Under the pieces are notes generated by a model, which saw nothing but the letters and a program-made list of their open reading frames with translations, ran no database searches and had not been told where the DNA came from. Both the position numbers and the translations under genes were made by a program. A DNA stretch of 64,000 nt from a virus (Duplodnaviria > Caudoviricetes): IMG/VR virus record IMGVR_UViG_3300032030_000030, positions 32,001 to 96,000 of that record, one strand, 5' to 3'. Positions 6,001-20,598 of this stretch are shown in pieces (the first letter of the stretch is position 1; every line of letters starts with the position of its first letter).

Positions 6001-8542
6001 CATACAGAAGAAAACTGCACGTATGATAGAAATCATTACAGGTAATGATGAAGAGACATTGAAAACTACATTCAATGTCAACAACATTAACAAACTGTAT
6101 GATGTTATGAGCAAAATGTCATTGGATGACCTTGAGGATGTCGCAAAGAAATTGAGAGGAAGAATTAATCCTTTGTCGCCATATACACAAGTTTACTTCC
6201 ATAATCAGAATGAAATTGGCGGTAAACTTATTGGTGCGTATGCAAATCATAACGCAGCACACGCAGCGGCACAATACTTCAATCTTAATATATCACAAAG
6301 AGGACAGTTCCTCTTTAATGGCAAGATAAAGACTTCTTTGCACGATACAGACCCAAGAATATCCAAGAACAACGCAGGATTCCTTGCTGCATCTGTGGAC
6401 AACGTAAAAGACCCTGTATTGTATTGGTTGAACCAAAACCTTTATACGGCTGACGTGTCTATGTTGCTTGCAAGGGCTGGATATTCAGCAGATGAAATCG
6501 GATTGCTTATGAATCAGCCAGTCATAAAGAAAGCGACAGATAACTTCGCAAATGGCTCTTATGGCAGCAAAGACAGGATATTTGGCAATGCTGTAAAAGA
6601 ATATTTTAATCTTGATTTAGAAGTAGGGAATGTTCTAAAGGTACTTAGAGAAACCTACGCTAAAAAAATGGATGAAATATTCAATAGGAAGACAAGCCGT
6701 GAAAAAAGTGGAATTGATGTAACAACAGCTGACTTGGTAAGCGAAATTGTCAATCCGACATCTGATGGTCAAAAAAAGATTGCAATGTTGTTCTTAAAAC
6801 TGCTTGAAACAGGACAGGAACTTAGCGATTTTACACAGGCTACCAAATTTGACACGCAGAATGGTGCGGCGAAGGCTTCCATTGCAGGCGACATAATCAA
6901 GTTGAACAAACTTGATGAAATAAAAACTTTACGCAGTGACAAAAGGCTTATTACATTTGACGAGAAATTGCTTGGAACTAAATTTACCCAAGGCAGAATA
7001 ATGGACAATGATGCTCTTATAAAGCAAATATACAGTAGTCCTTATCCGATGCTTACAGCATTTGGCGTTGCAGGCGTTTTGTCTACCGAAACATACATCG
7101 GAGACATATTCCCGTTCTTCAAGGGCAGATTAAGAGATATGTTCAAACAGTTTGAAACAATCAAAGGCTCTACGCTTACAGAGGATGAAATGTCTTCCAT
7201 CATGGAAGAGTTCTTGAACTTCTGGATGTCTGACATTCCAGATTTCGGAAGGAACAGCGATACAAGTCATCTCAGTCCTACTGACAAACGTAAAGTTTAT
7301 TTTGAGTTCTTCATAGACAACTTTTATATGAAGAAGGCTGAAAATAAGCGCATAAGGGAAAATGAGTTCATTAAGAGGTTGCAAGTCAAATATGTTGACA
7401 CGACAACAAACCAGAATGTAAACCCTGAGAATGTCAAGGAAGAGGATATAAAAAGTGGCAGATACGTGAGAATCCTTTGTATGCCAAATATAGGTTCTTT
7501 CGATAAAGATACAAAGCAAATGCTTTCAACTGAATGGGAGAAACTTTATTATAGCAACAAGAATGACGAACGCAAACTCGCTGTTGACTTACTGAGGTAT
7601 TCGTATTATAGAAATGGTCTTGGTTTTGCACCAGACTCATTCGGACATCTTGCTCCGTTATTCAGGACAGAACTTCCTGGATATATGGAAAGAATGGCAC
7701 AATTGCAAGACGATGAAAATATAACCGATGAACTCGTAGATAGATTTATGGAACAATATCTCAGGAATCATCCTACGAGCAAGATACTTGGGAATATCAA
7801 GGCGAAAGATGCGTATCCATTGTTTAAGTGGTCAGAGGAAGTAACAAACGAACTCTTGAGAGGAAAGTCATCGGTCAGAGTAACGTATGTATCACAAAAT
7901 AAAAAAGACCCAAACAGAAGATATGTCAACTACTTGCCAGATGTATTCTACGTAGGAAGTTATCTTATGCCAGGAGACATAAAAGGTGCAGAACCATTTG
8001 CCCTTATAACAGGCAAGGACGAGATGTTGAAACAATACATAAAAATTGACAATGTTATGTACAAACTCAATGAAGTAAATACACATTCGTTCTACGAAAA
8101 GATGAATGGTCTTGGCATTGCAAATGAAACGGATGGCGCACAGTTCCTTGAATACGATGCAAACACAAGCACCTTGTTGTCAGCCTTCGACATAAATGAC
8201 ACTTCGGCTTATGGACAGAGAAAGAATAACTACAAGAAGAGTTATACTGACTTTAAGTTGCTTGAAAACGATATGAGGGACGATTCGTTGCTGAGTATAT
8301 TGTTTGACAGCAAATACAACCAAGGATATGAAGCTTACAATACTGGTAACGAGGCTTCGACATTCCAAAAGTACATCGACGTCTACACCGACAGCATTGA
8401 ATATGCAAAGGACAACGATAAAACAAGCATTACTTATTCAAAGACCAGGTTTAAGGATGCACAAATAAATGAAGACTTAGATACGATAATAAGCAACATA
8501 CGTAAAGCGAATGACACAATAGAAGGAGTATGTAACGGATAA
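2..8542 (+). CDS. Giant virion-packaged DNA-dependent RNA polymerase (crAss-like, two-barrel); 5'-truncated by window
   Basis: Catalytic loop GSDFDVDKMYL (DFDVD at ~5363-5377) plus YRVPTEDKYSM and NVVDAQAYRSP motifs. Frame is open from position 2, so ATG 143 is probably internal. Confidence 0.92.
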   Translation, partial: KEETFISKINNVKNKLGPKVYEDRRRLVSDDFAALVTSTGVSSLKEDMMKDLESRKSEMNPYDVQSELAYIDTIGTTDALNTFGKAHFFNELKSEYERRINVLNNIANGNLFLNNGEIDENAYKGIYSLLRPVKSKGVYKHTETQKNYAKKMAAKYEALIAQDVWDVITQDSIEQISEKLGVKMSLREDTATKINKDEMKDAEEEASDLGKPSTDMEEKTVESWQEEQSAKGKHSSLTVELKHELSNIQEYDDNGKPKVDDLGNPIYMDEEVAFAFLQSRLGQCLTMDEMQNEFEDMILSRKQYTGLFDKIKKDENNRCKNPNLRAAFYRAMKTQYKNIFATKQGKEQRRVGDGVEYVDSVVTFQINKVIAYRYMTDSAMSNIENGDILNTDSSIYDKDLKVKKKNVESAIERLKGVIDRVLENAYGVDLKQSTSAFWAKISNYSRENVLDVINGKETIKVYGKGKNKNTFTEVNVEDEPFLKEVANIYNVAYDTVTGLGFEITKNDVLDLIYTKKNKLFGDEGLFTILLNMLEDKSLFNTTSSGSIKMPMNNEDFKRNMIAIAKTMNAIGKNAIEKSTRENGKVVMSTTNTSYESEMKDNIKQDDDEKALAYINEEFNQYSWFNMKGNEEKLRKMAQNTFEHSFTPRQKTLLGTAYRNLFSGFKDANNPSKRIAKPGELLNNLKEFVRVYNLCCEQYASDGFNKGELETIMGGRVPAVYTEDKKLNALLREFEKNSTYRKGFDLYTLNHFNGKEYDDWSLAEYASVMMMNYYKERYTLKDGWTKNQYISIANPVLSDSPAAEFWRIKRRTKDDVNNLGFTLTQEQKDEYAALVYGTKADGKPYRFADLTENQGGSLVAMLEMTNIVQQEINRIGNVLQRDAMRTKAKEQYKKGNGALQKAEKERFEAEMTEYMRLKKSIEESSLSPEEKANELAAIEEARKPQPMKVYKSVKEEVDENGNLLWTEPDAYYDITRKSDGSIKNIGGAEFKFFPALNDVKITVGDTQMSFLKYITDLISSDGNIDLSNPTEGKPDIRDVVFREIVKIQKSGFEEAYSKWIQNGVFDTEFDYKTKTTNFKHFEANVPFQTKADEIDAKYLKESGNSSILMQTYNRTLKDEKGNKLQGDALAKAINDNIDLFKSNSHTDEEFEKLFESAKKDALATNGSFNKLYNLMKEHFKEIADKEKSENVNQLSDATKEILMEYYNQSCLGTALIEELTITDLAYYKNPNDFQKRYKEVYAPSERLCTDVPFGKEIETSLYIKDVEMASPDEMIENIKKILKAAGMKASEINDIASSFKRNNVVDAQAYRSPKAYRAVKAMAGDLSIEEKVVLSRIIGDLDYVVANVLTEEELEECKEKGISLESYPKITKDSSEADRKKFKDMIAKDSMHVFQTIKPFTYAQIGMDSGVESYGNIKIGTQHKNSEFALFWATEIGRHYADILGLAEDNNIKKLVSLGEFMDEHDIDLVQFHSAVKVGCYGVVDTEGYQEGDDFKKYLERQVYKYDESTGFVDYKQELPGIIKRIPYKNYGIQASTPEHLIDIEQLVGSQIRRLILADNNAKTPFYINGKEYTRQQLIDHYNALITENIIESLSDLDEMFSSPENIEELLLKEMQGNSQYTSDMMKAARLVTLEDGRKVFPLLCDPVVSKKIEALLNSIIKNRITKQKIKGGACIQVSCFGCEDLKVTWSEPDENGVRHPLEMECYMGAYSKDLFEPAMDKNGILDLNVLKNNVDKKTFDAITHAIGYRVPTEDKYSMARLKIKGFLPPINGSAIMLPKEITTLSGSDFDVDKMYLMLHEFKKTKRARFKNLGGTTAFVNKINSLFADKEALAFMKENGLAKGMEIDDVIKLFDTIGKSIEEYRQTEQQKGSRLSEWIKKKNGKDAFTKFMNYSSDIMTWAKKNSEKVKNGKVNAIAKELSDFIDKSSGIEVVNTVKVINYRNTKEEFNGEDALEQKLYYAKEARENNRAARNNEIIDVMQGIMSHPDTASKFLNPGSFDIQKKTARMIEIITGNDEETLKTTFNVNNINKLYDVMSKMSLDDLEDVAKKLRGRINPLSPYTQVYFHNQNEIGGKLIGAYANHNAAHAAAQYFNLNISQRGQFLFNGKIKTSLHDTDPRISKNNAGFLAASVDNVKDPVLYWLNQNLYTADVSMLLARAGYSADEIGLLMNQPVIKKATDNFANGSYGSKDRIFGNAVKEYFNLDLEVGNVLKVLRETYAKKMDEIFNRKTSREKSGIDVTTADLVSEIVNPTSDGQKKIAMLFLKLLETGQELSDFTQATKFDTQNGAAKASIAGDIIKLNKLDEIKTLRSDKRLITFDEKLLGTKFTQGRIMDNDALIKQIYSSPYPMLTAFGVAGVLSTETYIGDIFPFFKGRLRDMFKQFETIKGSTLTEDEMSSIMEEFLNFWMSDIPDFGRNSDTSHLSPTDKRKVYFEFFIDNFYMKKAENKRIRENEFIKRLQVKYVDTTTNQNVNPENVKEEDIKSGRYVRILCMPNIGSFDKDTKQMLSTEWEKLYYSNKNDERKLAVDLLRYSYYRNGLGFAPDSFGHLAPLFRTELPGYMERMAQLQDDENITDELVDRFMEQYLRNHPTSKILGNIKAKDAYPLFKWSEEVTNELLRGKSSVRVTYVSQNKKDPNRRYVNYLPDVFYVGSYLMPGDIKGAEPFALITGKDEMLKQYIKIDNVMYKLNEVNTHSFYEKMNGLGIANETDGAQFLEYDANTSTLLSAFDINDTSAYGQRKNNYKKSYTDFKLLENDMRDDSLLSILFDSKYNQGYEAYNTGNEASTFQKYIDVYTDSIEYAKDNDKTSITYSKTRFKDAQINEDLDTIISNIRKANDTIEGVCNG

Positions 8543-8553
8543 AATACAAAGAA

Positions 8554-11500
8554 ATGGGAGCAAGTTGCAGCATAGACCTTTATATTAAAAACGATAAAGG
8601 CGAAGAGACAAAATCTCAGTTGTACAGTGATTTAAGAAATTTCACTACAACACAACGTGAAGCAAATAAGTTTTACAATGGCATAATGTCTTTAAAAGGA
8701 GAAGAATTGTGGGAACGCCTTCAAAAAGATTCTAATGGCGAACCCACAATCCAATCCTTAATTAGACATGGGCTTGGGAACCTTGTATCTGGAATCCCAG
8801 AGAACGTACTAAAAAGGAAGTATGGCTTCCTTGCGAGAGATGGAGGTGTAAGACGAGTACAACCTGGAACTAATACAGAAGCATTGAAGATGATAGAAAA
8901 TGTCATTGCATTTAACAATGACCCAGTAAACGAAGGTTTTATGGCAAAAATTAGAACACGCTGGGACAAAGGTGATATGTATGTTGACATTCAGCCTACA
9001 TACAAATACGATGACAATAAGATAGACTTGATAGCAAAGAAAAAAATTGAAGCATACAAGCAAATTCAAGACGCAATCCTTGCTACTGGCAAGTATATAC
9101 CTATTATAAGAGCGATTGGAGAAGCGGTTACTTCCAATGTTAAATTAGTGTCGAATACAAGTTTCGACCCGTCACTCACTATGAAAGCATTCCTTGCATC
9201 AATGGATTTAATCAATGGTCACAGATTTGGGTTCTCAAATGTATTCGACATCCTTAAAGTGTCACAAAATGACTTGGATAGCTATTTGACACCAATTGTC
9301 GATGCCATTACAGAGTATTATACTCATCCAGCAACAATAGATAGTTTCTCACAGAATATCTTTGGGTATCTTGCCGAATCGTTTGCTTCCGAATTTAATG
9401 ATTCATTGCATATTGGAGACAATGCTATAATAGCAGAGAATGAGTTTGAAACACAAACAGACAAGGAAAGCGGTGTAACTAAGGCTACTAATGCCACTAC
9501 GAGTAAAATGATTAAGAGATTGCTTACAATGGCATTACAAGGTAAAAAGAGTGGTGTTAGTTATGTTGACACACTCATAAGCCAAATGCTTGAAGATGTT
9601 ACTAAGCAGATACGTTCAAGTTCTATTGTAGATAGCACAACAGGTAAGTTTGCTGATAGCCTTATGGATATGACCAAGAACAATTCGTTTGTACCTCTTG
9701 AATCAGAAATAATCAAGGGAACATTTGACAAGGAACAAGACAAGAAGGATTCAGTCATATTGGACAAGGCGATAACTAACGCAACAGACCAAATCAAAAG
9801 TCTATCTCACTATACGGTAGAATTGAATAAGATTTTCAATGGAATACTTGATGCCGAATATAGGAGAAGAAGTATTTTTAGGGAGAAGAAAGGTCTTAGT
9901 GAAGTACATAGGAATCTTATTGAGGTTGACCTTGAAAGAATGGATAGAGTCCTTAAGAGACTTTCAAGAGCAAGGCGTTCTCAGAAATTCTCACTTGGTA
10001 TATTCGAGTATATTAAAGAAATTGGAGAAAGAGCAAAGGATTACAATGAGTTGGTAAGGGAAATGAACAAGGAAGACTTTTCCATTAAGAAGAAAGCATC
10101 TATTCTTAGGGATTTGTTTGATTTTATCAATATGTACGATAATACTTCCAAGGGTATCAGGCAGTTGATACTCGATGGTGGTACTTTTGCAGAAGAGGTG
10201 ATTGAATCCTCTCTTAAAGACATAGAATATGTGTTCAATGTACCTCTAAAAGGAGTGGAGTATGAGAAGATGAAAGATAGTGATGATGAGAAAATAAGAA
10301 ATCTTATCACATTGAAGCGAAATATGAACACTTGGTCTGACTCTGAGAAGATAAAGCACATTGACGAGATATACGAAAATGCCAAGACATATTTGGAATG
10401 GGCTATCGAAAACTCAAAGCAATATAGCGAAGACACAAAAGACCAGAAACTTGAAAAGATGAATGAACTCATTGGTATTCTCGATGTTGCGAAAGAGTAT
10501 CTTACTATGGCACAAAAGGATAGTCTTAGGGAAAAGCAAGAAACTGTTGCATCCAGTCTTGACGCATACGATGGTATAGTTCGTAGTCTTGAAGCAAGTT
10601 TTAGGAATATGGCAAAACCTATGATTGTAAAGTTCCTTGAAACATATATGGATGACAAACAAAAGGTTGTTAAATTTGGCGAGTATCTTGGCTTTAAGAA
10701 AGGAGAGACTGTTTCGGTTGAAAAATTGCTCACAACAATCACTTCTGATATTAATGCTTATCAGCGTTGGTTTTCGTCATTGACGAATGCCCCAGACCTT
10801 ATTCTTAACCTTATAAGCGAATCTATCAAGAGAGAAAAGTTCCTTGCTCAGCAAGAGTTCAAAAACTTTACTGACGATGTAAGACGCGAGGCTATCTTGC
10901 TTGAAGAAGCAGGAATTGAGAATACCGATTGGATGTTTGAACTTGATGAGAATGGCAACAGAACAGGATATTATGTACGTTCCGAATATGAGAAAACAGT
11001 ATTTGATGAATGTATGAAGGATAAGTTTGTTAGAAAAACGTTGAAATTGCTTCCTGGTGAAACATATAATCCTGCAAATTATATAGGTACTGAAAATGAA
11101 GGCTTAGTTGAGTGGTTTACGAAGTATTACAATAACAGGCTTGCGTATCACGAAGCAATGGGTGTTGTGGAGAACAAACAATACAGGGATATAATGTCAA
11201 ATCCTGCAAAAAAAAGATTCTATGAGTTCTTTATGAACAACTATGAAAGACTACAAAATATGTATCCTCCACGAGTTGTTCAAAAGAGCAGGATAATAGG
11301 AATCAAAATGAGTGAAAAGGAACGTATGAGAGAAGCAAATGGCATCAAGGGTCTTGTAAAAGGTGCTTGGAATGGTTTTGTAGATAGTATTACAACAACC
11401 TACGACGAAGATATGGCTACAATGCGCGTGGACCCAGCAGGACATGAAATAAAGATGCTTCCAATATATTTCTGCAACTTTAAAGACGAGGATATTCCTA

Positions 11501-13230
11501 CTGTTTCAAAAGATTGCGTAGCAAGTCTTCTCGCTTATGCAGGCAAGGCTTATGAATACAATAGATTAAATGAAGTGGTAGATGCAATAGAGCTTACGAG
11601 AGAGATATTAAAGGACAGAGAAATCGAACTAAGAGTAGGTGATACTCCATTTGTAGAGAGTGTAAACAGAGAAATGAAGCGTCTTGCAAGGAAAATGAAG
11701 AAGATTGCAAAGAATCAGGAAACAAACGAACTTGACGAAATGCAAATCCTTAAACGCAAAGACGAAGGAACAAGCAACGCTTCTCAAATGTTGAATGACA
11801 TACTCGATGCTTCTTTGTATGGTAGATATCATGTGAGAGAGCAATCTGTAAATATACTTGGAAAGAATATTAACTTTGGCAAGGTTGCAGACTTCCTCAA
11901 TAGAAGAACTGCCGAATCAGCGTTGTCTCTTTCATTAACAAACGGTTTGTCTAATGTAACAACAGGTTCTATTATGATGCATATCGAAGGAACTCGTTGG
12001 CTTGGAGATAAGGATGCTCAACGATATTTCTCAAATAGGGATATTGACTGGGCAAACAGGACTTATTTCAAGGATTCCATACAAATAGCAATGGAAGTTG
12101 CAGGTAAGTCAAAGGCTAAGAAAAATAAGATTGTACTTCTTGGAGAATTATTTGATGTGCAATCAGATTTTGTAGAAATGATGTCAAGGTCAGATTGGTC
12201 ATTTGGTACATTTGGAAGAATGTATGGAGACCTTTGCCAGTTTATGCAAAATGCAGGCGAACATTGGATGGCATACAAAACAATGCTCTGTTTGTTGAGA
12301 AACAAGAAACTCAAAGATGCCAATGGTGGTGATATAACGTTGTATGATGCATTTGAGGTTAAATACATCGACAAAGATGGTAACTTGACAACATCAGACC
12401 AAGGATATGGTGGCAAACTCGTTTTAAAGGACGGAATAAAGAACGAAGATGGCAGTGAAATATCCAAGGAAGATATGCAAGAGATGATTTATTCATTACA
12501 TAAACGTATGGTAGGTATAAATCACGGTATGCACGGTATATATAATACGCAAGACTTGGCAGCAGCACAACGATATGCCATTGGTAGAATGGCTTATTTT
12601 CTCAGACACTGGATTCCTGCATCAATCAATAAGAGATGGGCGAAGGTAACATACGACAAGGATATTCAAGATTGGAGAGAAGGATATTACCGTACTTGTG
12701 GACGCTTTGCAATGCAACTTCTTAATGATGTTGTAAGAGGGGATAAACGTATGAAAGAAGTATGGGCTGCACTTGAACCAGAAGAAAAAGCCAATATAAA
12801 TAGAGGCTTAGTTGAAGTAACAAGTTTCATTCTTGCTTCTATTGCAGCAAGCATTCTTTACGGTATGGGCAAGGGTCCAGACAGAGATAGGTTCAAAGAT
12901 AATTATGGATTCAGAATGTTAAGGTATCAAATGCTAAGATTAAAATCAGAACTTGGCTTTTTTGTACCAAACAAACAGATGTTCTCTGAATACCTACGTA
13001 TTTTTAAGTCTCCTATTGCAGCAATCAATATAGGAGAGTCTGCTTTAGGACTGTTAAAACTATTGTGGATTCCCGATATATGGAATGAAGTTGATAGAGG
13101 TCCATTCAAAGGACACAGCCAATGGTTCAAATCATTCTTTGGAAACAGGGCATTGTGGCCAAGACTCAATGTAATTATCAGAAATACTGTTGGTCTCGAA
13201 GAGGCTGAAAGACAATATATCACACAATAG
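8554..13230 (+). CDS. Large virion cargo/ejection protein (1558 aa)
   Basis: Size, position right after vRNAP, C-terminal GxYN..AAAQRYAIGR..RHW..EGYYRT pattern recalled from crAss-like large cargo proteins. Confidence 0.65.
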   Translation: MGASCSIDLYIKNDKGEETKSQLYSDLRNFTTTQREANKFYNGIMSLKGEELWERLQKDSNGEPTIQSLIRHGLGNLVSGIPENVLKRKYGFLARDGGVRRVQPGTNTEALKMIENVIAFNNDPVNEGFMAKIRTRWDKGDMYVDIQPTYKYDDNKIDLIAKKKIEAYKQIQDAILATGKYIPIIRAIGEAVTSNVKLVSNTSFDPSLTMKAFLASMDLINGHRFGFSNVFDILKVSQNDLDSYLTPIVDAITEYYTHPATIDSFSQNIFGYLAESFASEFNDSLHIGDNAIIAENEFETQTDKESGVTKATNATTSKMIKRLLTMALQGKKSGVSYVDTLISQMLEDVTKQIRSSSIVDSTTGKFADSLMDMTKNNSFVPLESEIIKGTFDKEQDKKDSVILDKAITNATDQIKSLSHYTVELNKIFNGILDAEYRRRSIFREKKGLSEVHRNLIEVDLERMDRVLKRLSRARRSQKFSLGIFEYIKEIGERAKDYNELVREMNKEDFSIKKKASILRDLFDFINMYDNTSKGIRQLILDGGTFAEEVIESSLKDIEYVFNVPLKGVEYEKMKDSDDEKIRNLITLKRNMNTWSDSEKIKHIDEIYENAKTYLEWAIENSKQYSEDTKDQKLEKMNELIGILDVAKEYLTMAQKDSLREKQETVASSLDAYDGIVRSLEASFRNMAKPMIVKFLETYMDDKQKVVKFGEYLGFKKGETVSVEKLLTTITSDINAYQRWFSSLTNAPDLILNLISESIKREKFLAQQEFKNFTDDVRREAILLEEAGIENTDWMFELDENGNRTGYYVRSEYEKTVFDECMKDKFVRKTLKLLPGETYNPANYIGTENEGLVEWFTKYYNNRLAYHEAMGVVENKQYRDIMSNPAKKRFYEFFMNNYERLQNMYPPRVVQKSRIIGIKMSEKERMREANGIKGLVKGAWNGFVDSITTTYDEDMATMRVDPAGHEIKMLPIYFCNFKDEDIPTVSKDCVASLLAYAGKAYEYNRLNEVVDAIELTREILKDREIELRVGDTPFVESVNREMKRLARKMKKIAKNQETNELDEMQILKRKDEGTSNASQMLNDILDASLYGRYHVREQSVNILGKNINFGKVADFLNRRTAESALSLSLTNGLSNVTTGSIMMHIEGTRWLGDKDAQRYFSNRDIDWANRTYFKDSIQIAMEVAGKSKAKKNKIVLLGELFDVQSDFVEMMSRSDWSFGTFGRMYGDLCQFMQNAGEHWMAYKTMLCLLRNKKLKDANGGDITLYDAFEVKYIDKDGNLTTSDQGYGGKLVLKDGIKNEDGSEISKEDMQEMIYSLHKRMVGINHGMHGIYNTQDLAAAQRYAIGRMAYFLRHWIPASINKRWAKVTYDKDIQDWREGYYRTCGRFAMQLLNDVVRGDKRMKEVWAALEPEEKANINRGLVEVTSFILASIAASILYGMGKGPDRDRFKDNYGFRMLRYQMLRLKSELGFFVPNKQMFSEYLRIFKSPIAAINIGESALGLLKLLWIPDIWNEVDRGPFKGHSQWFKSFFGNRALWPRLNVIIRNTVGLEEAERQYITQ

Positions 13231-13254
13231 CAATGTTTTCAAAGTTTCAAAGTT

Positions 13255-13291
13255 AACGACGGATTATTAAGTCCGTCGTTTTCTTTTTTTT
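13255..13291 (+). terminator. Rho-independent terminator ending the virion operon
   Basis: AACGACGGATT-atta-AGTCCGTCGTT followed by T-run. Confidence 0.85.
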
Positions 13292-13413
13292 ATGAACCGC
13301 CAATCACTCGGTCAATCACTATCCATTGAACCGCAACCAATTATGGTAATCAATTAACGGAGGTATAGCGGTTCTACCTCTATAAAACAAAAAACATTTA
13401 AAAACTTTTAACC

Positions 13414-14019
13414 ATGAACGCATTTCTTTTTAACAACTTCGCATCAGCTAAGACAGTAGACATTCGTAAGGCACTCACAATGACAGCTCTCTCTTCGGAA
13501 GAGACGCTCGAGAACGGCACCAAGGTCAAGATTGAAGCCAGGGATGCCGTAGCCTTCGAGAAGGACCCTGACAATCGCTCTGAACTCAGCAACAAGGACA
13601 TCACTCTCGCCTTCACATTCCGTCAGACTGTCGGCAGTGAGTCACAGGCGTACAAGATTTCTGCGCCGATTTCAACAGAACTCTGGGACGCATTGGACGA
13701 GGGTCGTGAACTCATCAAGGTTCCTTACGCAGAAGACTACAATCGTTCTGACATCAAGGGCGCAAAGGAGAACTTGAAGAAACTTGCTGAACTCGATGTC
13801 AAAATCTATGTCTTCGACGCTTGGGACGACAAGGCAGGTCAATATCCTACTGACAGCGAAGGCAAACCAATCTATGAGAACTTCATTGCAGGTTTGCCTG
13901 GTGAGTTCGAGATTGACCCTGACCAGCCGCGTAAGAAGGACAACATCGGCAAGAACAAGAAGGCTGCAACCGCAAAGTCTGTAAAGGCAGAAGCTGCTAA
14001 CGAAGAGGAAATCTTCTAA
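13414..14019 (+). CDS. 201-aa protein, putative ssDNA-binding protein; paralog of 19291..19899
   Basis: Lys/Ala linker then acidic tail ending EEEIF; local similarity to the minus-strand 202-aa ORF; C-ending codon bias. Confidence 0.5.
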   Translation: MNAFLFNNFASAKTVDIRKALTMTALSSEETLENGTKVKIEARDAVAFEKDPDNRSELSNKDITLAFTFRQTVGSESQAYKISAPISTELWDALDEGRELIKVPYAEDYNRSDIKGAKENLKKLAELDVKIYVFDAWDDKAGQYPTDSEGKPIYENFIAGLPGEFEIDPDQPRKKDNIGKNKKAATAKSVKAEAANEEEIF

Positions 14020-14025
14020 CAACAT

Positions 14026-14042
14026 TTGCTGTATCCGAAGTA
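14026..14042. repeat. 17-bp direct repeat copy 1 (TTGCTGTATCCGAAGTA)
   Basis: Exact match to 19146-19162. Confidence 0.9.
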
Positions 14043-14108
14043 CAACCGACCTGAGCAAGTCGTTAAACTACTCATTTTTTAATTGTAAAACTCAAAATCA
14101 TAAATAAA

Positions 14109-14501
14109 ATGAAAACAACACTCAGAAGAGATATGTCAATCAAGGCAATGGCTATGCTTATAATGGCAGCAATTCGTGCAGATGAAACAGCGGCAAAAAG
14201 GATTGCTGCTTGTTTGTCAATACGGGATTTGTCGTTCATTACGTCAGATGCAGTAGTTCCAGAAACTGTCTCCGTAGTCAATACTGACGTTTTTGAGCAG
14301 GCAACAAACATTTCGGTTGATGCAATCAAGGAAATATCTTTGAATCGTCTTGACCACGAAGACGGAGAAGGTTACGAAGTCTTGGTAAGGGGCTTTGCTT
14401 CCAAAGAAGAAATGGACTCAAAGTCCTGGAACGAAGCAACTGTAATCAGATTCCCGTTGGAATTGTGTCCTGACTATGGTCTCGACTACACAACAGCATA
14501 A
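14109..14501 (+). CDS. Hypothetical protein
   Basis: ORF with A-rich leader typical of Bacteroidota genes. Confidence 0.7.
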   Translation: MKTTLRRDMSIKAMAMLIMAAIRADETAAKRIAACLSIRDLSFITSDAVVPETVSVVNTDVFEQATNISVDAIKEISLNRLDHEDGEGYEVLVRGFASKEEMDSKSWNEATVIRFPLELCPDYGLDYTTA

Positions 14502-14605
14502 TGTTGCTATGGCGAAAGAGAAAATTAATCCAAAGACGTTGATGGCTCCATTCTCTCCCTATTAAATTAGGTCTTGGAGTAAAACGCAAACTAATACTAA
14601 AGCAT

Positions 14606-14908
14606 ATGACAAATCCTGTACGCAGCCTTGTTTGGCGTAATTGTATCGCCAGAGGCACTCACAAGGTATTCAAAATGGAATGGTTCAAGAAAGGCCGTTC
14701 TACTTGCGAATACAGTAGAGTTTTCCTCCTCAACTCTACACAAGCAACTGAGGAGAAATTCAAGATAGTAGTTAACTATGGTTACAAAGGTGATTTCGAC
14801 TATTGCAACATCTACGACATATCCCAACGTGAGGATATGGATAACGCAGAGTGCAATGGCGTTATCCCTAAATATTCGGAAATTAAAAGGCAACATGAAT
14901 ACAAATAA
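14606..14908 (+). CDS. Hypothetical protein, possibly 5'-disrupted
   Basis: ORF in tightly packed operon; upstream frame broken near 14540-14560. Confidence 0.55.
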   Translation: MTNPVRSLVWRNCIARGTHKVFKMEWFKKGRSTCEYSRVFLLNSTQATEEKFKIVVNYGYKGDFDYCNIYDISQREDMDNAECNGVIPKYSEIKRQHEYK

Positions 14909-15239
14909 AATATGGATGTGGCAAGAATACGACGGTCACGTATGGGCAGGTCCGTGTTTCAATACGGCTTATTCATCAAAAAATAGGGCCAAAAGTCATA
15001 TAGTCAAGATTGCTAAAAGCGATGACAGGAATAAAATAATGGGTTTCTTCCACGAAAACGAGGAAGGAACTTGCGTTATATATTACTATTGCATCATTGA
15101 CCATTCGCACGATGATTATGTTGACGACGTATTCAAACAAGCAATAGAAAGAAGAAAGCTCAACCATCAATTGACTTTGGCTGACATTAGGGAATTTGAA
15201 GGTGAAGTTTTTAAGTTAACCGATTTTGAACTGCTATGA
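14895..15239 (+). CDS. Hypothetical protein
   Basis: Probable start MNTNKIW at 14895; ATGA overlap with next gene. Confidence 0.65.
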   Translation: MNTNKIWMWQEYDGHVWAGPCFNTAYSSKNRAKSHIVKIAKSDDRNKIMGFFHENEEGTCVIYYYCIIDHSHDDYVDDVFKQAIERRKLNHQLTLADIREFEGEVFKLTDFELL

Positions 15240-15517
15240 AATTAACTGAAATAGGTACAACACCAATGTTCGAGGAAGTTGATATTCCTTACGCCGTCTT
15301 TGTATCGGAAGACGGGCATGTAAGGTATCAAGGAAGCCGCGAATATGTTAGAAAACGGGCAATCAAAGGCCCGTACTGCGGAACTCTACGTGTCTATAAC
15401 AATCGGCATTCTCATACTGCCGATATTGTCAGTACGATACATACTGGCAAATGTGCGCAAAGAATGATAAACGAACTCTTAAAAGAATGTGAACCAACAG
15501 ATGGACTATTCGATTAA
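15236..15517 (+). CDS. Hypothetical protein
   Basis: Translationally coupled ORF. Confidence 0.65.
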   Translation: MKLTEIGTTPMFEEVDIPYAVFVSEDGHVRYQGSREYVRKRAIKGPYCGTLRVYNNRHSHTADIVSTIHTGKCAQRMINELLKECEPTDGLFD

Positions 15518-15857
15518 ACAAGACGTTGGTAGTGATGTAATTAAGTGTATGTGCAACTGGTATAAAAATCACTATGGTGCCATACTTGAAAAGATACATC
15601 ACGTCGATACTCGTTTTACTAACAAGGGCGAACTCAGAATCCAGGGCTGGATAACCGAGGAAGACCTTTGGAATAATGCTCCCAAATATGACGGTTTTGA
15701 CATGAGCTTTCAGCTTGATAGAGCAAATCGTATATTTGTAATCTCTGCTTGGGTTATTGACCCATTTATGTTAAATATTCCTTCCGACTTCAAGCCAAAT
15801 ATCCCTGGTTTTGATGACTATTGGAAGGGTAATGTTGGACCATTTACAGACGATTAA
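15489..15857 (+). CDS. Hypothetical protein
   Basis: Packed ORF; start may be 15501. Confidence 0.65.
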   Translation: MNQQMDYSIKQDVGSDVIKCMCNWYKNHYGAILEKIHHVDTRFTNKGELRIQGWITEEDLWNNAPKYDGFDMSFQLDRANRIFVISAWVIDPFMLNIPSDFKPNIPGFDDYWKGNVGPFTDD

Positions 15858-15858
15858 T

Positions 15859-16170
15859 ATGTTACCAGAAGAAATGGTGCATGGTGGCATCTACAAAGTA
15901 GCCAATACAAGAACAGGTGATTTCTGTGTTGGTTACTTTGATTATTTCAAGCAAAACAGCAAGAAAACAAAGGCTCGTATTGTTATGAAAGACACCATAG
16001 CACACTACAATCACCTTTACGACGGATATTGGAATGCCATTCTTGACAAAGTAGAGTTTGAAAGCAATAACCTACAAGTCTGCAAACCTGAAAAAGGCGA
16101 GGAAATGGCATATCATGCCGTCATTTCTGCAATGAAGGAGTTTAATCTGAAAATTAGCAAAAATGATTAA
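15859..16170 (+). CDS. Hypothetical protein
   Basis: Start MLPEEMV directly after previous stop. Confidence 0.65.
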   Translation: MLPEEMVHGGIYKVANTRTGDFCVGYFDYFKQNSKKTKARIVMKDTIAHYNHLYDGYWNAILDKVEFESNNLQVCKPEKGEEMAYHAVISAMKEFNLKISKND

Positions 16171-16447
16171 AACTAATATTGAAAGCGTAATTGCTAACAG
16201 AGAAAGTCTTGAAACACTCTCAGGCTGTATGTGTTGTCAAAAGATATTTGACGTCCCACATAAGAAATGTGTTTATTGCAGCGAGTTCAAAGACTGTAAA
16301 GTATTATCGTGTGCAAACTGTGCATGGTCTATTCCATGTAGTGACGAAGATGTTTGTTTTCCGTGGCTTGCACACGATTTGTTAAACGTAATAAAAGAAC
16401 AAAATGGAAGCGATTTGGAGAAAGAAATTGGCGACGGTAATCGGTAG
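16163..16447 (+). CDS. Cys-rich, putative metal-binding protein
   Basis: CMCC, CVYC, CANC and further Cys. Confidence 0.55.
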   Translation: MIKTNIESVIANRESLETLSGCMCCQKIFDVPHKKCVYCSEFKDCKVLSCANCAWSIPCSDEDVCFPWLAHDLLNVIKEQNGSDLEKEIGDGNR

Positions 16448-16937
16448 TATGATACCGTCAGGTCTTATCGTCAAAACAGACTTTGGCGATGAGAGGGTAA
16501 TTGCATTGCAAATCCGTACAGACTCTGACGAGTTCGATGCAATTGTAATTACTGAGAATCAGAATGAGAATCAAGGCGTCTATCGAATCGAAGATGTCAA
16601 ACCGTATCTTAAAACTTACGGTCAATTGACAGAACCTGAAATGGACCACATGGACTATCTCGACGACGACAGAGAGAAAAGTGAGATGGCAATTGCTCTT
16701 GCCTACATGAAATGCGTTGTTGACCGTGATGGACAAAATGAGTTCATTCAAGAAGGTTATGCTCTGAAAGCTCCGAAAGGAATGTACAAACCTGTTGATT
16801 GGAAAGCATACAACAAGGAGTTGTACGGAGATGACTACGACGACGATGACGACGAAGACGAAGACGAAGACAGTAACAACAAAGTCAACTTCTCGAACGA
16901 GGACATCGACGACGAAGAAGACTACGACGAAATCTAA
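16404..16937 (+). CDS. Hypothetical protein with very acidic C-terminal tail
   Basis: DDYDDDDDEDEDEDS...DIDDEEDYDEI. Confidence 0.7.
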   Translation: MEAIWRKKLATVIGSMIPSGLIVKTDFGDERVIALQIRTDSDEFDAIVITENQNENQGVYRIEDVKPYLKTYGQLTEPEMDHMDYLDDDREKSEMAIALAYMKCVVDRDGQNEFIQEGYALKAPKGMYKPVDWKAYNKELYGDDYDDDDDEDEDEDSNNKVNFSNEDIDDEEDYDEI

Positions 16938-16950
16938 AAAAAACAAACAA

Positions 16951-17550
16951 ATGGCAAAACTAAAAGACCCACCAGCAGTTGTCTTGACGTTGGAGGCTAC
17001 GAAAGAGAACACAATCTTATTCTATGGTCATACAACAAATAAGAACATAGGACCGCAGTGTTTGTCACAATGGTTTCCATGTAAATTCACAGAACCAATC
17101 ATTGATGAAGACAATCAAACTGCGGCGACGATTGAGTATCATTGTGCCGAGCAGTATATGATGGCTCATAAAGCCTTGTTGTTCCAAGACAACGATACTT
17201 TTGCTAAAATATGCAAGGCAAATACTCCGAAAGAATGTAAAGAACTTGGAAGGCAAGTAAGGAATTTCGACCAAAAGAGATGGGACGAATACAAAGAGGA
17301 AATTGTGGTAGTTGGCAACTATCATAAATTCACTCAAAACCCTGACCTTGCCGAATATCTCAAATCTACTGATGGCAAGGTTCTTGCCGAAGCCAGCCCC
17401 TATGATAGAATATGGGGCATTGGGTTCGATAAAGACCACGCCTTCGAGAATCGCAGCAAATGGGGACAAAATCTCCTTGGCAAAGCATTGATGATTGTCA
17501 GGGAAAATCTGTTGCATCCAGACATCGGCGATATTGAAATTGTCTACTAA
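16951..17550 (+). CDS. NADAR (YbiA-like) family N-glycosidase / ADP-ribosylhydrolase
   Basis: LSQW, AEQYMMAHKA, LGRQV.NFD..RW, KFTQN, LAEASPYDRIWGIG, GQNLLGKALM motifs; true start MAKLKD at 16951. Confidence 0.93.
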   Translation: MAKLKDPPAVVLTLEATKENTILFYGHTTNKNIGPQCLSQWFPCKFTEPIIDEDNQTAATIEYHCAEQYMMAHKALLFQDNDTFAKICKANTPKECKELGRQVRNFDQKRWDEYKEEIVVVGNYHKFTQNPDLAEYLKSTDGKVLAEASPYDRIWGIGFDKDHAFENRSKWGQNLLGKALMIVRENLLHPDIGDIEIVY

Positions 17551-17689
17551 ATGGCCAGTTTTCGGCGTTTTAAGCTATACCCTGATTAATCCGTTGTTCT
17601 ACGGATTATCAGGGTAATTTGGCTAATAAAACGCCAATTACAGGTCAGTAACTTTCTATTGAACCACCATCACCAAACAAACTCTACTT

Positions 17690-18530
17690 TATTAGGGTTA
17701 TGCGATGATATAGGGGTTCCGTGGTCGCCCTTTAACCACGTTAAAACAGAACTTGTGTGGACTGCGTGAGGAATGAGGCTAAACGGATGTCCACTGTCTG
17801 CTCGACATTAAGAGCTATCCAACTTCAATGAGAGTGTACATATCATTGAAAGAAGGGTTGCGTAACTGCTGTAGGTGTGTGTAGTGCGCGTAAAATCACG
17901 GACCTTCTATACGCAAGAGACTGTTGTGTGTTCTCGCCTTGCGTTGAGTTGAAGTAGAAGAACATAATAAAACGCACGCGGATTGCAACCGTGTGCGTCG
18001 AATACGCTTTGCTTAGTTGTGCGTCATCAACAAGCCGACTTCCAAGTATCGTCGTTACGACTTGGCGCGGAATAATACAGAGAAAACTGTACCGTGGCAA
18101 AGTAAATCTATCCATACAAACCTCAATATTGAGTTAGGTGTGGATATTTTTATCATGTTTTCTTAGAGAACAATCCTAAGCGTGGGTACAACTCCCAGTA
18201 AGTCTTAGGCTGCACGTTGAGCAGGTGCGTAAGTAAAACCGCTCAATTTGACTCTCCATCTGTTGGGAGTATAAATAAATACAGACTGAGAGCCGCAGTA
18301 GCATCCATAAGGCGGTAGCGCAGACTAAGAGGGTTATGTCTGCATCATGGCACCATGAAGAAGCCTCCTCGTTGGCGGTGCTGGATAATCAACTAATTCT
18401 TCAATCAATGAGCAAAAACGGATAAATCCGCGACATTATGGCAGTTCTATCTGTCATTCTGTCGTGGGGTTATTTGTAGGGCGAGGGGATAACTCCTCTG
18501 TCTCTTCGCTCTAACTCTCTCAAAATCAAT
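17690..18530 (+). ncRNA. Candidate large structured ncRNA (~850 nt), family unassigned; ends approximate
   Basis: No credible ORF; more than 12 consecutive stems with G-U pairs that work only on the + strand; loop-loop complementarities; terminator directly downstream. Confidence 0.72.
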
Positions 18531-18535
18531 AAATT

Positions 18536-18584
18536 AAACAGCAAGGTGATGGTCTATACGACTGTTGCCTTGCTGTTTTTTTTT
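18536..18584 (+). terminator. Rho-independent terminator after the candidate ncRNA
   Basis: AAACAGCAAGGTGATGGTC-tatac-GACTGTTGCCTTGCTGTTT then T-run. Confidence 0.85.
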
Positions 18585-18628
18585 CTCCGCCCACTACGCA
18601 GACACTCATGCCTTGCTGTCTTTTTACC

Positions 18629-19095
18629 ACTTAGCAAGCGTAGCCTACGGAGTGGGCGTAACACGCTGTCAATCAGTGAATTGATGTTTAAGAAAGAAAA
18701 AAAGAGAAAAACAGAAAGAAGAAGAAAGAAGAAAAGAAAAGAAGCAAAAGAAAAGAATAAAGAATAAGAAAGAATAAAAGAGAATAAAAAGAAAGAATCT
18801 CTACTACTAAGAGGATATTATTCTTACGTCATTCTTTGTAAGAATAATATAATATAGTAAAAAGCAAAAAAAGAATGAGACTACCAAATATTTTTAGTTA
18901 AATAATGTTAAGAGAATGAAAGGTCAGGAAATAATTATAGTTCGGAGTATCAGGAGTGAAATACTTAGCAAGCGAGACCCACGTGAAAGACTTAGCAAGT
19001 GCATCCCACGGAAAACATGGTATCGCTGTAAAACTGGCGACATGGTGTTGATAGATAGATTGGCGTGATGGTGATGATATGATATTGGCGTGAGA
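18629..19095. repeat. Origin-like non-coding region: iteron-like repeats, purine tract, perfect inverted repeat
   Basis: ACTTAGCAAG at 18629, 18963, 18990; A/G tract ~18690-18798; 13-bp IR 18815-18850; ATTGGCGTGA at 19059 and 19084. Confidence 0.5.
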
Positions 19096-19121
19096 TGAAA
19101 AAAAAGGACAATGTAATGGAT

Positions 19122-19152
19122 AAAAAAAACAGCAAGGTGTCGTCCTTGCTGT
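19122..19152 (-). terminator. Terminator for the minus-strand gene
   Basis: On - strand ACAGCAAGG-acgaca-CCTTGCTGT followed by T-run. Confidence 0.8.
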
Positions 19153-19162
19153 ATCCGAAGTA
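19146..19162. repeat. 17-bp direct repeat copy 2
   Basis: Exact match to 14026-14042. Confidence 0.9.
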
Positions 19163-19290
19163 ATTTTAACAAAACATCTCATAGATATACAGGGACACCG
19201 AGTTCATCCATTAGTCAGCCTTGACTCGGCTGCCACGACAGGCATTTAATATATATATCTATGAGATGTCAGAGGCACGTTTTCTGCGCA

Positions 19291-19899
19291 TTAGAAGATT
19301 TCGTCATTGTCTTTGGCATCGCCTGCTTTGTCATCCTTGGTGGATGGCTTAGGCTGCTCTACCTTCGGAGACGATTTAACCTTGCTCATCTTCGCATCGA
19401 GCGCAGCAGCGGCTTCGTCAGACATAATGTCGAACTTGCCGACAAACGCGAGGACTGCGTTGAGCAAAATCGGCTTGCCGTTCTTGTCGGCGACGGAGAA
19501 GTTGCCGTCCTTGTCTTCCGCCGAGAAGAAATAGAGTGCAATCTTCTTTTCTGCGGCAATCTCCTCGAAAGCGGGCAGAAGCTGCTGGTTGCCTTTCGGC
19601 GCAGCATCGTTGCCGCCTTCGACATATTCCATGCAGTTGCCACGAAGACGTTCTTCGGCAACGGCATAAAGCTCGCTGTTAATTGCTGCGGAGAATGAGC
19701 GCGGTTTGCCATTCGCATCCTTGTCGGTTGTCGTCAACGACAACGAGACGGGTGCGCCGTTCGGGTCGTGGTCTGCGGCTTTGTCGTAAGCAACGATGCT
19801 ACGGAAATGGTTAAGGCCGAGTGCGAAAAACGCCTCACGGATGTCAGTTGGCTTGCCAGCATTGGACATCACACTTGCAAATCTTTGTGCTTGATTCAT
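19291..19899 (-). CDS. 202-aa protein, putative ssDNA-binding protein; only credible minus-strand gene
   Basis: A-rich leader, own terminator, tail ending DNDEIF, similarity to 13414 ORF, visibly GC-richer than flanks. Confidence 0.55.
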   Translation of the reverse strand: MNQAQRFASVMSNAGKPTDIREAFFALGLNHFRSIVAYDKAADHDPNGAPVSLSLTTTDKDANGKPRSFSAAINSELYAVAEERLRGNCMEYVEGGNDAAPKGNQQLLPAFEEIAAEKKIALYFFSAEDKDGNFSVADKNGKPILLNAVLAFVGKFDIMSDEAAAALDAKMSKVKSSPKVEQPKPSTKDDKAGDAKDNDEIF

Positions 19900-20238
19900 T
19901 TTGTATATGTTTTTTGTCCACGTAACCCAACGTGGCTTGGGACACAGAATTTATTTCTGTATCAATGGAACGTTCCTGAAACTTAGAATTGGCGTGTTCT
20001 GTAGGATTGTTACGCAGATAATCTCGTGAACTGCGGATGCAAAGTATCTTCGAGAAACAGATTGGCGTGAATGCGAACAAGGTACTACTTCTACATCCTG
20101 ACACACAGACCACACAGACAACGACGGGGGTATGAACCCAATTCTGAGCGGCGAGGGTGGGTCATGCTATAATATCCCTCGTTCATAGCCATATCAGAAA
20201 AAAAATAGTAGAATAAAAAAAAAAAAAAATGAAAAAAA

Positions 20239-20399: not shown

Positions 20400-20470
20400 G
20401 GAGATGTAGCTCAATGGCAGAGCGGTTGGCTGTTAACCAGTTAATCGAGGTTCGATTCCTTGCTTCTCCG
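20400..20470 (+). tRNA. tRNA-Asn(GTT)
   Basis: Cloverleaf; anticodon loop CTGTTAA; T-loop TTCGATT. Confidence 0.9.
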
Positions 20471-20522
20471 CAAGTGACCTGTTAAGCCTCTCTACGATGC
20501 TCAAATTTACGGGTCGATATAT

Positions 20523-20593
20523 TGCGAGTTAGAGTAATGGTAACTTGTTTGGTTCATGCCCAAAAGATACAGGTTCGATTCCTGTACTCGCTA
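20523..20593 (+). tRNA. tRNA-Met(CAT), 1:72 mismatch (initiator-like)
   Basis: TTTGG-TTCATGC-CCAAA anticodon arm; acceptor (T)GCGAGT/ACTCGC(T). Confidence 0.8.
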
Positions 20594-20598
20594 CTATT

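Follow-up and report, generated by a model that had tools for sequence, protein, structure and literature searches.

The question raised by this locus is what occupies the kilobase that follows the NADAR gene of a crAss-like phage. The stretch of DNA analysed (the window, 64,000 nucleotides) corresponds to bases 32001–96000 of a 104,696-bp viral record that is rated complete. The source phage had been placed in Crassvirales by a first-pass annotation made from the letters only, and this agrees with its TerL, which shows 59% identity to that of uncultured phage cr116_1 and 52% to that of IAS virus, both crAss-like phages from human faeces. The genome uses the standard code, and the long genes of the window all lie on the + strand with the exception of a 202-aa gene on the minus strand (19291–19899). 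The gene at 16795–17550 encodes a NADAR protein (Pfam E 1e-56) with its stop codon at 17548–17550 and its true start probably at 16951. Beyond it, between 17551 and 19260, no open reading frame of at least 100 aa was found with codes 11 or 4 or with TAG or TAA read as Q, so the earlier statement that the region holds no credible ORF was correct. The next convincing gene is the 202-aa one, for which neither Pfam nor PHROGs gave a match, and a tRNA cluster detected with the Rfam tRNA model and ARAGORN extends from 20400 on, 1.8 kb downstream of the RNA described below. The kilobase most likely encodes a non-coding RNA, folded and conserved, that spans about 630–680 bases and belongs to no catalogued family.

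Some further elements were observed around the locus. An abiF RNA motif (Rfam, 47.9 bits, gathering 37) was found at 20478–20514 (+), in the gap between tRNA-Asn (20400–20471) and tRNA-Met (20523–20594). Downstream of the terminator, before the 3′ end of the minus-strand gene is reached, lies a purine-rich low-complexity tract (18680–18800) with a G+C content of 27% and strong GC and AT skew. Outside the window, where the genome record begins (C1:580–653), ARAGORN called a tRNA whose type it left undetermined and whose anticodon has four bases (gggt), located between tRNA-Ile and tRNA-Ala.

The region was resolved into the following elements:

17580–17614, + strand: hairpin of 13 bp with one bulge, just 3′ of the NADAR stop codon (from the sequence)
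17645–17662, + strand: promoter-like motif of 18 nt, candidate start signal of the RNA
17674–17715, + strand: variable 5′ leader of the cassette (identity comparison)
17716–18107, + strand: conserved 5′ domain with several hairpins and multi-branch junctions (identity, covariation)
18108–18255, + strand: variable middle domain, in which the hairpin 18109–18146 is kept and the rest varies
18256–18348, + strand: conserved 3′ domain, hairpins followed by a 5-nt single-stranded end
18349–18403, + strand: predicted minimal HDV-like (theta-type) ribozyme (descriptor match, covariation)
18411–18513, + strand: 3′ tail with two long hairpins, outside the cassette
18536–18584, + strand: intrinsic terminator, a 19-bp stem followed by a T-run (terminator scan)

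The hairpin after the NADAR gene is retained with altered stem letters in four relatives (L042, L043, L044 and L050) and probably ends or stabilises the transcript of the upstream operon. The promoter-like motif, although defined after the fact, occurs in three exact copies in 64 kb (13312 and 17645 on the + strand, 19979 on the minus strand) versus 0.32 expected, and these copies precede the RNA and both of the 201/202-aa paralogous genes. It is conserved in the same four relatives and absent in a fifth one, L045, and its position suggests that it may act as the promoter of the RNA. The leader shows 86–88% identity in L042, L044 and L050, and L045 has unrelated sequence in its place. A 45-nt stretch close to the end of the genome record (C1:104050–104092) has 82% identity to window positions 17620–17664, that is, the region just 5′ of the promoter-like motif with the motif included. 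The terminator with its 19-bp stem and T-run, already reported in the first-pass annotation, was recovered by the scan and is conserved in all relatives.

Close relatives were retrieved via the flanking proteins. The RNA is carried by L042, L044, L045 and L050, the L044 contig ending within it, and is missing from L043 and L058. Counted by lineage, five have the cassette and two lack it, and its junctions lie near 17673 and 18411. The non-carriers retain the sequence up to about 17673 (seen in L043 only) and from 18411 on, and the RNA slot is taken in them by a short segment that contains a gene for a small, conserved protein. Since body and ribozyme are missing as a unit, they form a discrete accessory cassette; since L043 and L058 keep the tail and terminator (18411–18584) without the RNA, this part does not belong to it. 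In addition, because sister phages fill the slot with a small protein gene, the RNA would be dispensable for the basic lytic cycle. The slot gene lies at 10752–10922 in L043 and at about 1830–1950 (minus strand) in L058, with its C-terminal half conserved between them; it has no family match and no similarity to a 56-aa ORF found after NADAR in L046. Two direct repeats in the window, 17694–17702/18330–18338 (636 nt) and 17772–17788/18407–18423 (635 nt), are not conserved in the homologues and probably arose by chance.

Identity to the window differs between the parts of the locus as follows:

5′ domain, 17716–18107: 94–97% in the four carriers
3′ domain, 18256–18348: 92–97% in L042, L045 and L050; L044 covers only 32 nt of it, with 78% identity
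Middle domain, 18108–18255: 55–88% in the relatives
NADAR gene: 65–86% in the relatives
177-aa gene before NADAR: 75–83% in the relatives

In L042, most of the middle domain is replaced and expanded by about 470–600 nt of ORF-free foldable sequence (z −2.8, no called gene). An identity map in 300-nt steps over 12 kb showed that these genomes are mosaic and that the RNA block alone is at least 94% identical in every carrier. Along the mapped interval (7500–19950, versus L042, L043, L044 and L050), other blocks reach 93–98% between some pairs. The 1558-aa gene (8554–13230), for instance, is 90–98% identical to L043 and L044 nearly throughout, with one 300-nt window at 88%, and just 56–85% identical to L042 and L050, and the ranking flips from 13200 onward. 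Such changes in ranking point to frequent recombination among these phages, and since the genomes are recombination mosaics, the high identity of the RNA could partly reflect recent transfer. L045 has about 650 extra bases 3′ of the ribozyme (3976–4609), which include a tRNA-like element at 4082–4150 (tmRNA model 19.7 bits, E 1.4e-5, below gathering, no ARAGORN call) and a 109-aa ORF at 4280–4609 without Pfam or PHROG match.

Base pairing was then compared among the carriers. The twelve stems listed in the first-pass annotation were all found in the sequence, and the selection at the RNA level that it had deduced from them was upheld in six stems of 17716–18107, which are 99.1% paired across four homologues. 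These six stems, defined without the homologues, contain 5 both-side changes versus 1.0 ± 0.9 when shuffled (0/500), and slid controls gave 0. Stems 7–10 (18100–18410) gave 5 pairs changed on both sides (1/500 shuffles), and a revised helix set for the same interval gave 10 versus 3.6 ± 1.3 (0/500). With the MFE structure predicted from the window only, 9 compensatory double changes were counted versus 1.3 ± 1.1 in permuted alignments (0/2000), and 29 broken pairs versus 39 ± 4 (p 0.01). About 15 pairs provide the covariation signal, and all the homologues are close (94–97%). The helices supported by it are:

17720–25/17735–40, + strand: both-side changes
17800–03/17812–15, + strand: both-side changes
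17972–81/17989–98, + strand: both-side changes
18042–47/18060–65 with inner pairs 18050–51/18058–59, + strand: both-side changes
18077–80/18087–90, + strand: both-side changes
18109–17/18138–46, + strand: four pairs changed on both sides, 100% paired
18212–15/18225–28, + strand: covaries in L050
18293–96/18312–15, + strand: pair 18293/18315 altered on both sides in two sequences

Other helices (17757–62/17789–94, 17824–31/17843–50, 17911–17/17938–44 and 18320–25/18338–43) are invariant or vary on one side only, so the homologues do not contradict them. The 3′ domain contains the hairpins 18251–56/18265–70, 18293–96/18312–15 and 18320–25/18338–43; in the last one, A18324 is replaced by G in L050 and the pair survives only as G·U on the + strand.

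Several proposed pairings were not supported. The stem 18217–22/18241–46 loses its 3′ strand in L050, and its 5′ strand falls in the loop of the covarying hairpin. The two long-range contacts that had been suggested between 18328–37 and 18489–99 and between 17694–700 and 18512–18 show uncompensated changes in their 3′ partners, which persist in phages without the RNA. The pairing of the CCCTT loop with the upstream AGGGG is not retained in the homologues, and that of 18191–97 with 18264–70 competes with the local hairpin 18251–56/18265–70, which is kept in all four sequences. Two further candidates were discarded. A closing helix given by RNAalifold (17718–25/17895–17902) has less support than the local hairpin 17720–25/17735–40, and the 5′ leader pairs only weakly with the 3′ end, in a way that, judged by eye, L045 does not keep.

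The earlier reading of the + strand from a G-U bias is in agreement with the pair types of the supported helices, 12 G·U versus 3 A·C. The RNA was assigned to the + strand because of this excess, because the ribozyme and the terminator are oriented that way, because the consensus fold of the tail hairpins (18411–18513) shows many exchanges of G·U to G-C or A-U, and because the MFE is lower on the + strand (−207 kcal/mol) than on the minus strand (−185 kcal/mol).

Folding energy by itself was less informative. The z-score comparison recommended in the first-pass annotation does give a low value for 17690–18584 (−6.0), but most of it comes from the tail and not from the body, which alone has z −2.5 on the + strand and −3.0 on the minus strand. 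A scan of 32 kb in 300-nt windows gave a background of −1.2 ± 1.5, with −1.8 and −3.6 for the windows of the body. The outliers were 18301–18600 (−8.4, tail and terminator) and 17401–17700 (−4.9, hairpin after NADAR). The energy of the body is ordinary for this genome and does not mark it as exceptional; conservation and covariation, not energy, single out the RNA body.

The 3′ edge of the cassette coincides with a predicted HDV-like ribozyme. The descriptor used for the search was composed of G1, P1 of 6–7 bp, P2 of 4–8 bp, P3 of 3 bp, L3 containing CC, a G after P1′ and J4/2 as C-N-R-A immediately 5′ of P2′. It gave a single match on both strands of the 104.7-kb genome, at 18349–18403, and one match each in L042, L050 and L045 at the homologous site. 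The 684 kb of loci searched contained no other, and in 1.28 Mb of shuffled sequence (ten windows) the descriptor matched once. The matched segment has the nested double pseudoknot P1-P2-P3-L3-P3′-P1′-P1.1-L4/P4-J4/2-P2′ with G at position 1, and its parts are:

18349–54/18377–82, + strand: P1 (descriptor)
18356–62/18397–403, + strand: P2 (descriptor)
18363–65/18374–76, + strand: P3, 3 bp (descriptor)
18366–73, + strand: L3, with P1.1 partners at 18383–84 and an 8-nt L4 at 18385–92
18393–96, + strand: J4/2, whose first base, C18393, is the putative catalytic C (descriptor)

In L042 and L050 the ribozyme shows few differences, all at unpaired positions. The L045 copy has a P4 stem, and the letters of its P1 and P2 are entirely different with the pairing intact, while P3, the CC of L3 and J4/2 are unchanged. 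Overall, two pairs of P1 are altered on both sides and two on one side with pairing kept in all copies, and the four-base J4/2 is identical in four of four copies despite the different P1 and P2 of L045. The comparative evidence argues strongly for a working HDV-like ribozyme. Its fold and position are shown by sequence and covariation, and from the chemistry of the family it should cleave between 18348 and 18349. The one suggestive weak Rfam match was to the CPEB3_ribozyme model, at 18337–18403, with 15.1 bits in the window and 17.0 bits in L042 (gathering 35), which is weak evidence either way, as the Rfam HDV-like models describe P4-containing forms.

Theta ribozymes are so named when the cleavage site is at most 5 nt from the 3′ end of a tRNA (PMC10879173). 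No tRNA was detected upstream of this ribozyme by ARAGORN or the Rfam tRNA model, and none of the nine tRNA genes of the genome carries a ribozyme. Since no tRNA precedes it, it belongs with the "isolated" theta ribozymes; 493 of these were reported by Kienbeck et al. (2024) in non-coding regions away from tRNAs and left unexplained (PMC10879173). The RNA ligase PF09414 and the CCA-adding enzyme PF01743 are enriched in theta-ribozyme phages (PMC10879173). A family search of the present genome found neither of them, nor RtcB, and therefore nothing points to ligation or circularisation of the RNA.

The ribozyme, absent from the first-pass annotation, also corrects the extent of the RNA. The annotation had proposed a single RNA of about 850 nt, of the GOLLD/ROOL size class, reaching to the terminator. 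A large non-coding RNA stands, with a body of about 630–680 nt (approximately 17670–18348 on the + strand; core common to all carriers, 17716–18348), but the length of ~850 nt and the terminator as its end do not, because 18349–18403 splits the body from the tail and terminator. The comparison of the relatives shows a selected RNA fold with a ribozyme at its 3′ edge, and shows that the cassette is accessory.

We consider it probable that the locus is an accessory, stand-alone non-coding RNA gene on the + strand, with a multi-domain fold and an HDV-like ribozyme that cuts its 3′ end. Transcription of the + strand would start just past the motif at 17645–17662, which would serve as the RNA's own promoter, and the transcript of about 630–680 nt would fold into the conserved 5′ domain, the variable middle and the conserved 3′ domain. 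The ribozyme, acting in cis, would cut 5′ of G18349 in vivo. By the chemistry of the family, this cleavage would free an RNA with an exact 3′ end bearing a 2′,3′-cyclic phosphate and would separate this RNA from the hairpin tail and terminator that follow.

Other explanations of the locus have to be weighed against this one. A coding role of the region, with one or several small or recoded proteins as products, was considered, since it contains + strand ORFs of 30–49 aa and one sizeable ORF, of 90 aa on the minus strand (17843–18115). The start codon of the latter is missing from L042 and L044, variable columns are spread 12/12/10 over its three codon positions, and its differences are 5 synonymous versus 31 non-synonymous. 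Variable columns lack three-base periodicity in every frame, reading with code 4, TAG=Q or TAA=Q yields no long frame, and gene callers placed no gene at the RNA region in L042, L045 and L050. With no long frame and no codon-position bias, a protein-coding gene, standard or recoded, was rejected, and the chance that small proteins account for the region is close to negligible. A DNA-level element (replication origin, packaging site or recombination hotspot) with hairpins acting in DNA would likewise be ORF-free, hairpin-rich and conserved, and a purine-rich tract indeed follows just downstream at ~18680–18800. This possibility is highly improbable, however, considering that the conservation is G·U-specific and confined to one strand, that the complete ribozyme fold is meaningful only in RNA, that the terminator has the matching orientation and that two relatives live without the element.

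Two further explanations were weighed. In one of them, the RNA is a long structured 3′ UTR of the NADAR operon, in which cleavage of the message by the ribozyme adjusts mRNA stability or splits the operon into segments, and the body is functionless. The RNA and the upstream operon do have a common orientation, the promoter-like motif is missing from L045, and orphan theta ribozymes are mostly sense to their neighbouring genes (PMC10879173). Against it, a conserved hairpin and the promoter-like motif separate NADAR from the RNA, the body is much better conserved than NADAR and shows compensatory changes, and body and ribozyme are gained or lost together, with NADAR and the tail remaining in place. 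We regard a 3′ UTR as unlikely. In the other, a selfish or neutral non-coding cassette has spread recently and its identity comes from recombination, not from selection on the RNA. The compensatory double changes in at least nine helices and the re-lettered yet maintained ribozyme helices imply that pairing was selected after divergence, and the substitutions of the 5′ domain are not concentrated in any one part. The mosaic identity map with its other blocks at 93–98% between some pairs, the presence or absence that varies by lineage, the swapped flanks in L045 and the narrow distribution would fit such a cassette, which is nevertheless rather improbable.

The body of this RNA was not recognised by any family model. 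As stated in the first-pass annotation, it could not be assigned to a known family: Rfam 15 gave no match to GOLLD, ROOL, OLE, HEARO, RNase P, tmRNA or group I/II introns, and at gathering score and at E up to 10 the body was unmatched in the window, L042, L043, L044 and L045. The raiA covariance model was also unmatched at gathering or at E up to 10. ARAGORN called no tmRNA, and the lone tmRNA-like match lies outside the RNA, downstream of the ribozyme in L045. Blastn against 50,697 phage records gave no match to the RNA, and NADAR relatives in IMG/VR included one unrelated jumbo-phage locus only. Neither nhmmer nor BLAST matched the RNA in 29 TerL relatives, among them 15 whole Crassvirales records, and a covariance model of 17968–18110 (R1) was unmatched in these 15 genomes and in 22 loci. 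Exact-pattern scans gave no match in viral contigs (two patterns) or metagenome contigs (two patterns). A scan of genome contigs returned four matches, all chance 19–21-mers in unrelated bacterial contigs; the one in L054 resembles, by eye, groEL-type coding sequence. Overall, searches for homologues of the RNA in public phage records, IMG/VR and JGI metagenomes gave no sequence or covariance-model match, and no description of such an RNA in crAss-like phages was found in the literature. Judged by sequence comparison, the RNA is most likely a new large phage non-coding RNA family with a narrow distribution and a 3′ end made by a ribozyme.

As to function, it can be guessed, with low certainty, that the RNA uses its conserved fold to act on a partner of host or phage origin, perhaps in counter-defence or takeover, because of the accessory slot and the neighbourhood of NADAR and other small accessory genes. 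More speculatively, it might be the first representative of an undescribed, wider class of large RNAs in phages with interchangeable ribozyme 3′ ends and, like ROOL and GOLLD, might form an RNA-only multimer used in takeover or counter-defence, which we consider unlikely. Within this reading, the invariant palindromic loops 17832–17842 and 17982–17988 could possibly form kissing contacts; as a sign of multimers, palindromic hairpin loops are not significant (2 seen versus 1.2 expected).

The locus is of interest because two puzzles meet in it: an uncatalogued conserved RNA of about 0.65 kb ends exactly at a theta/HDV-like ribozyme that is not next to a tRNA, and the sister phage L045 preserves this layout although its ribozyme is built differently. 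If the wider class is real, many "orphan" theta ribozymes would be explained. If the arrangement is general, orphan ribozymes could become signposts to new large phage RNAs, and ribozyme-made 3′ ends would be a phage route to exact, terminator-free RNA ends. The presence and absence of the cassette among sister phages constitutes a natural experiment on the function of the RNA.

Regarding known systems, the ribozyme is of a known kind (theta/minimal HDV-like, isolated subclass), and the body is in neither ROOL nor GOLLD. The segment at 18349–18403 has in common with theta/minimal HDV-like ribozymes (PMC10879173) the nested double-pseudoknot plan, P1 starting from G1, a 3-bp P3, the CC in L3 for P1.1, a short L4 where P4 would otherwise be and a J4/2 opening with the catalytic C, as well as the setting, that is, a gut-type phage of a Bacteroidota-infecting lineage and a non-coding region in sense to the neighbours. 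It differs in that it follows a structured RNA of ~0.65 kb and is not adjacent to a tRNA, and in that the genome has the standard code and lacks PF09414 and PF01743. The body resembles ROOL (RF03087) and GOLLD (RF01998) in its size class of ~0.6–0.8 kb, its many helices, its accessory, phage-borne nature and a tRNA cluster nearby (here 1.8 kb downstream), but it has no covariance-model similarity to them at E up to 10, its 3′ end would be ribozyme-made and its distribution is very narrow. To our knowledge, few large structured phage RNAs exist, none of them with a known function. Phage morons are accessory genes that sit between core genes and bring their own promoter and terminator. The present cassette is similar to them in being a self-contained unit, bordered by a promoter-like motif and a terminator, that only some close relatives have and whose cargo can be exchanged (a protein gene in L043 and L058), with the difference that the cargo here is a large non-coding RNA with a ribozyme and not a protein gene.
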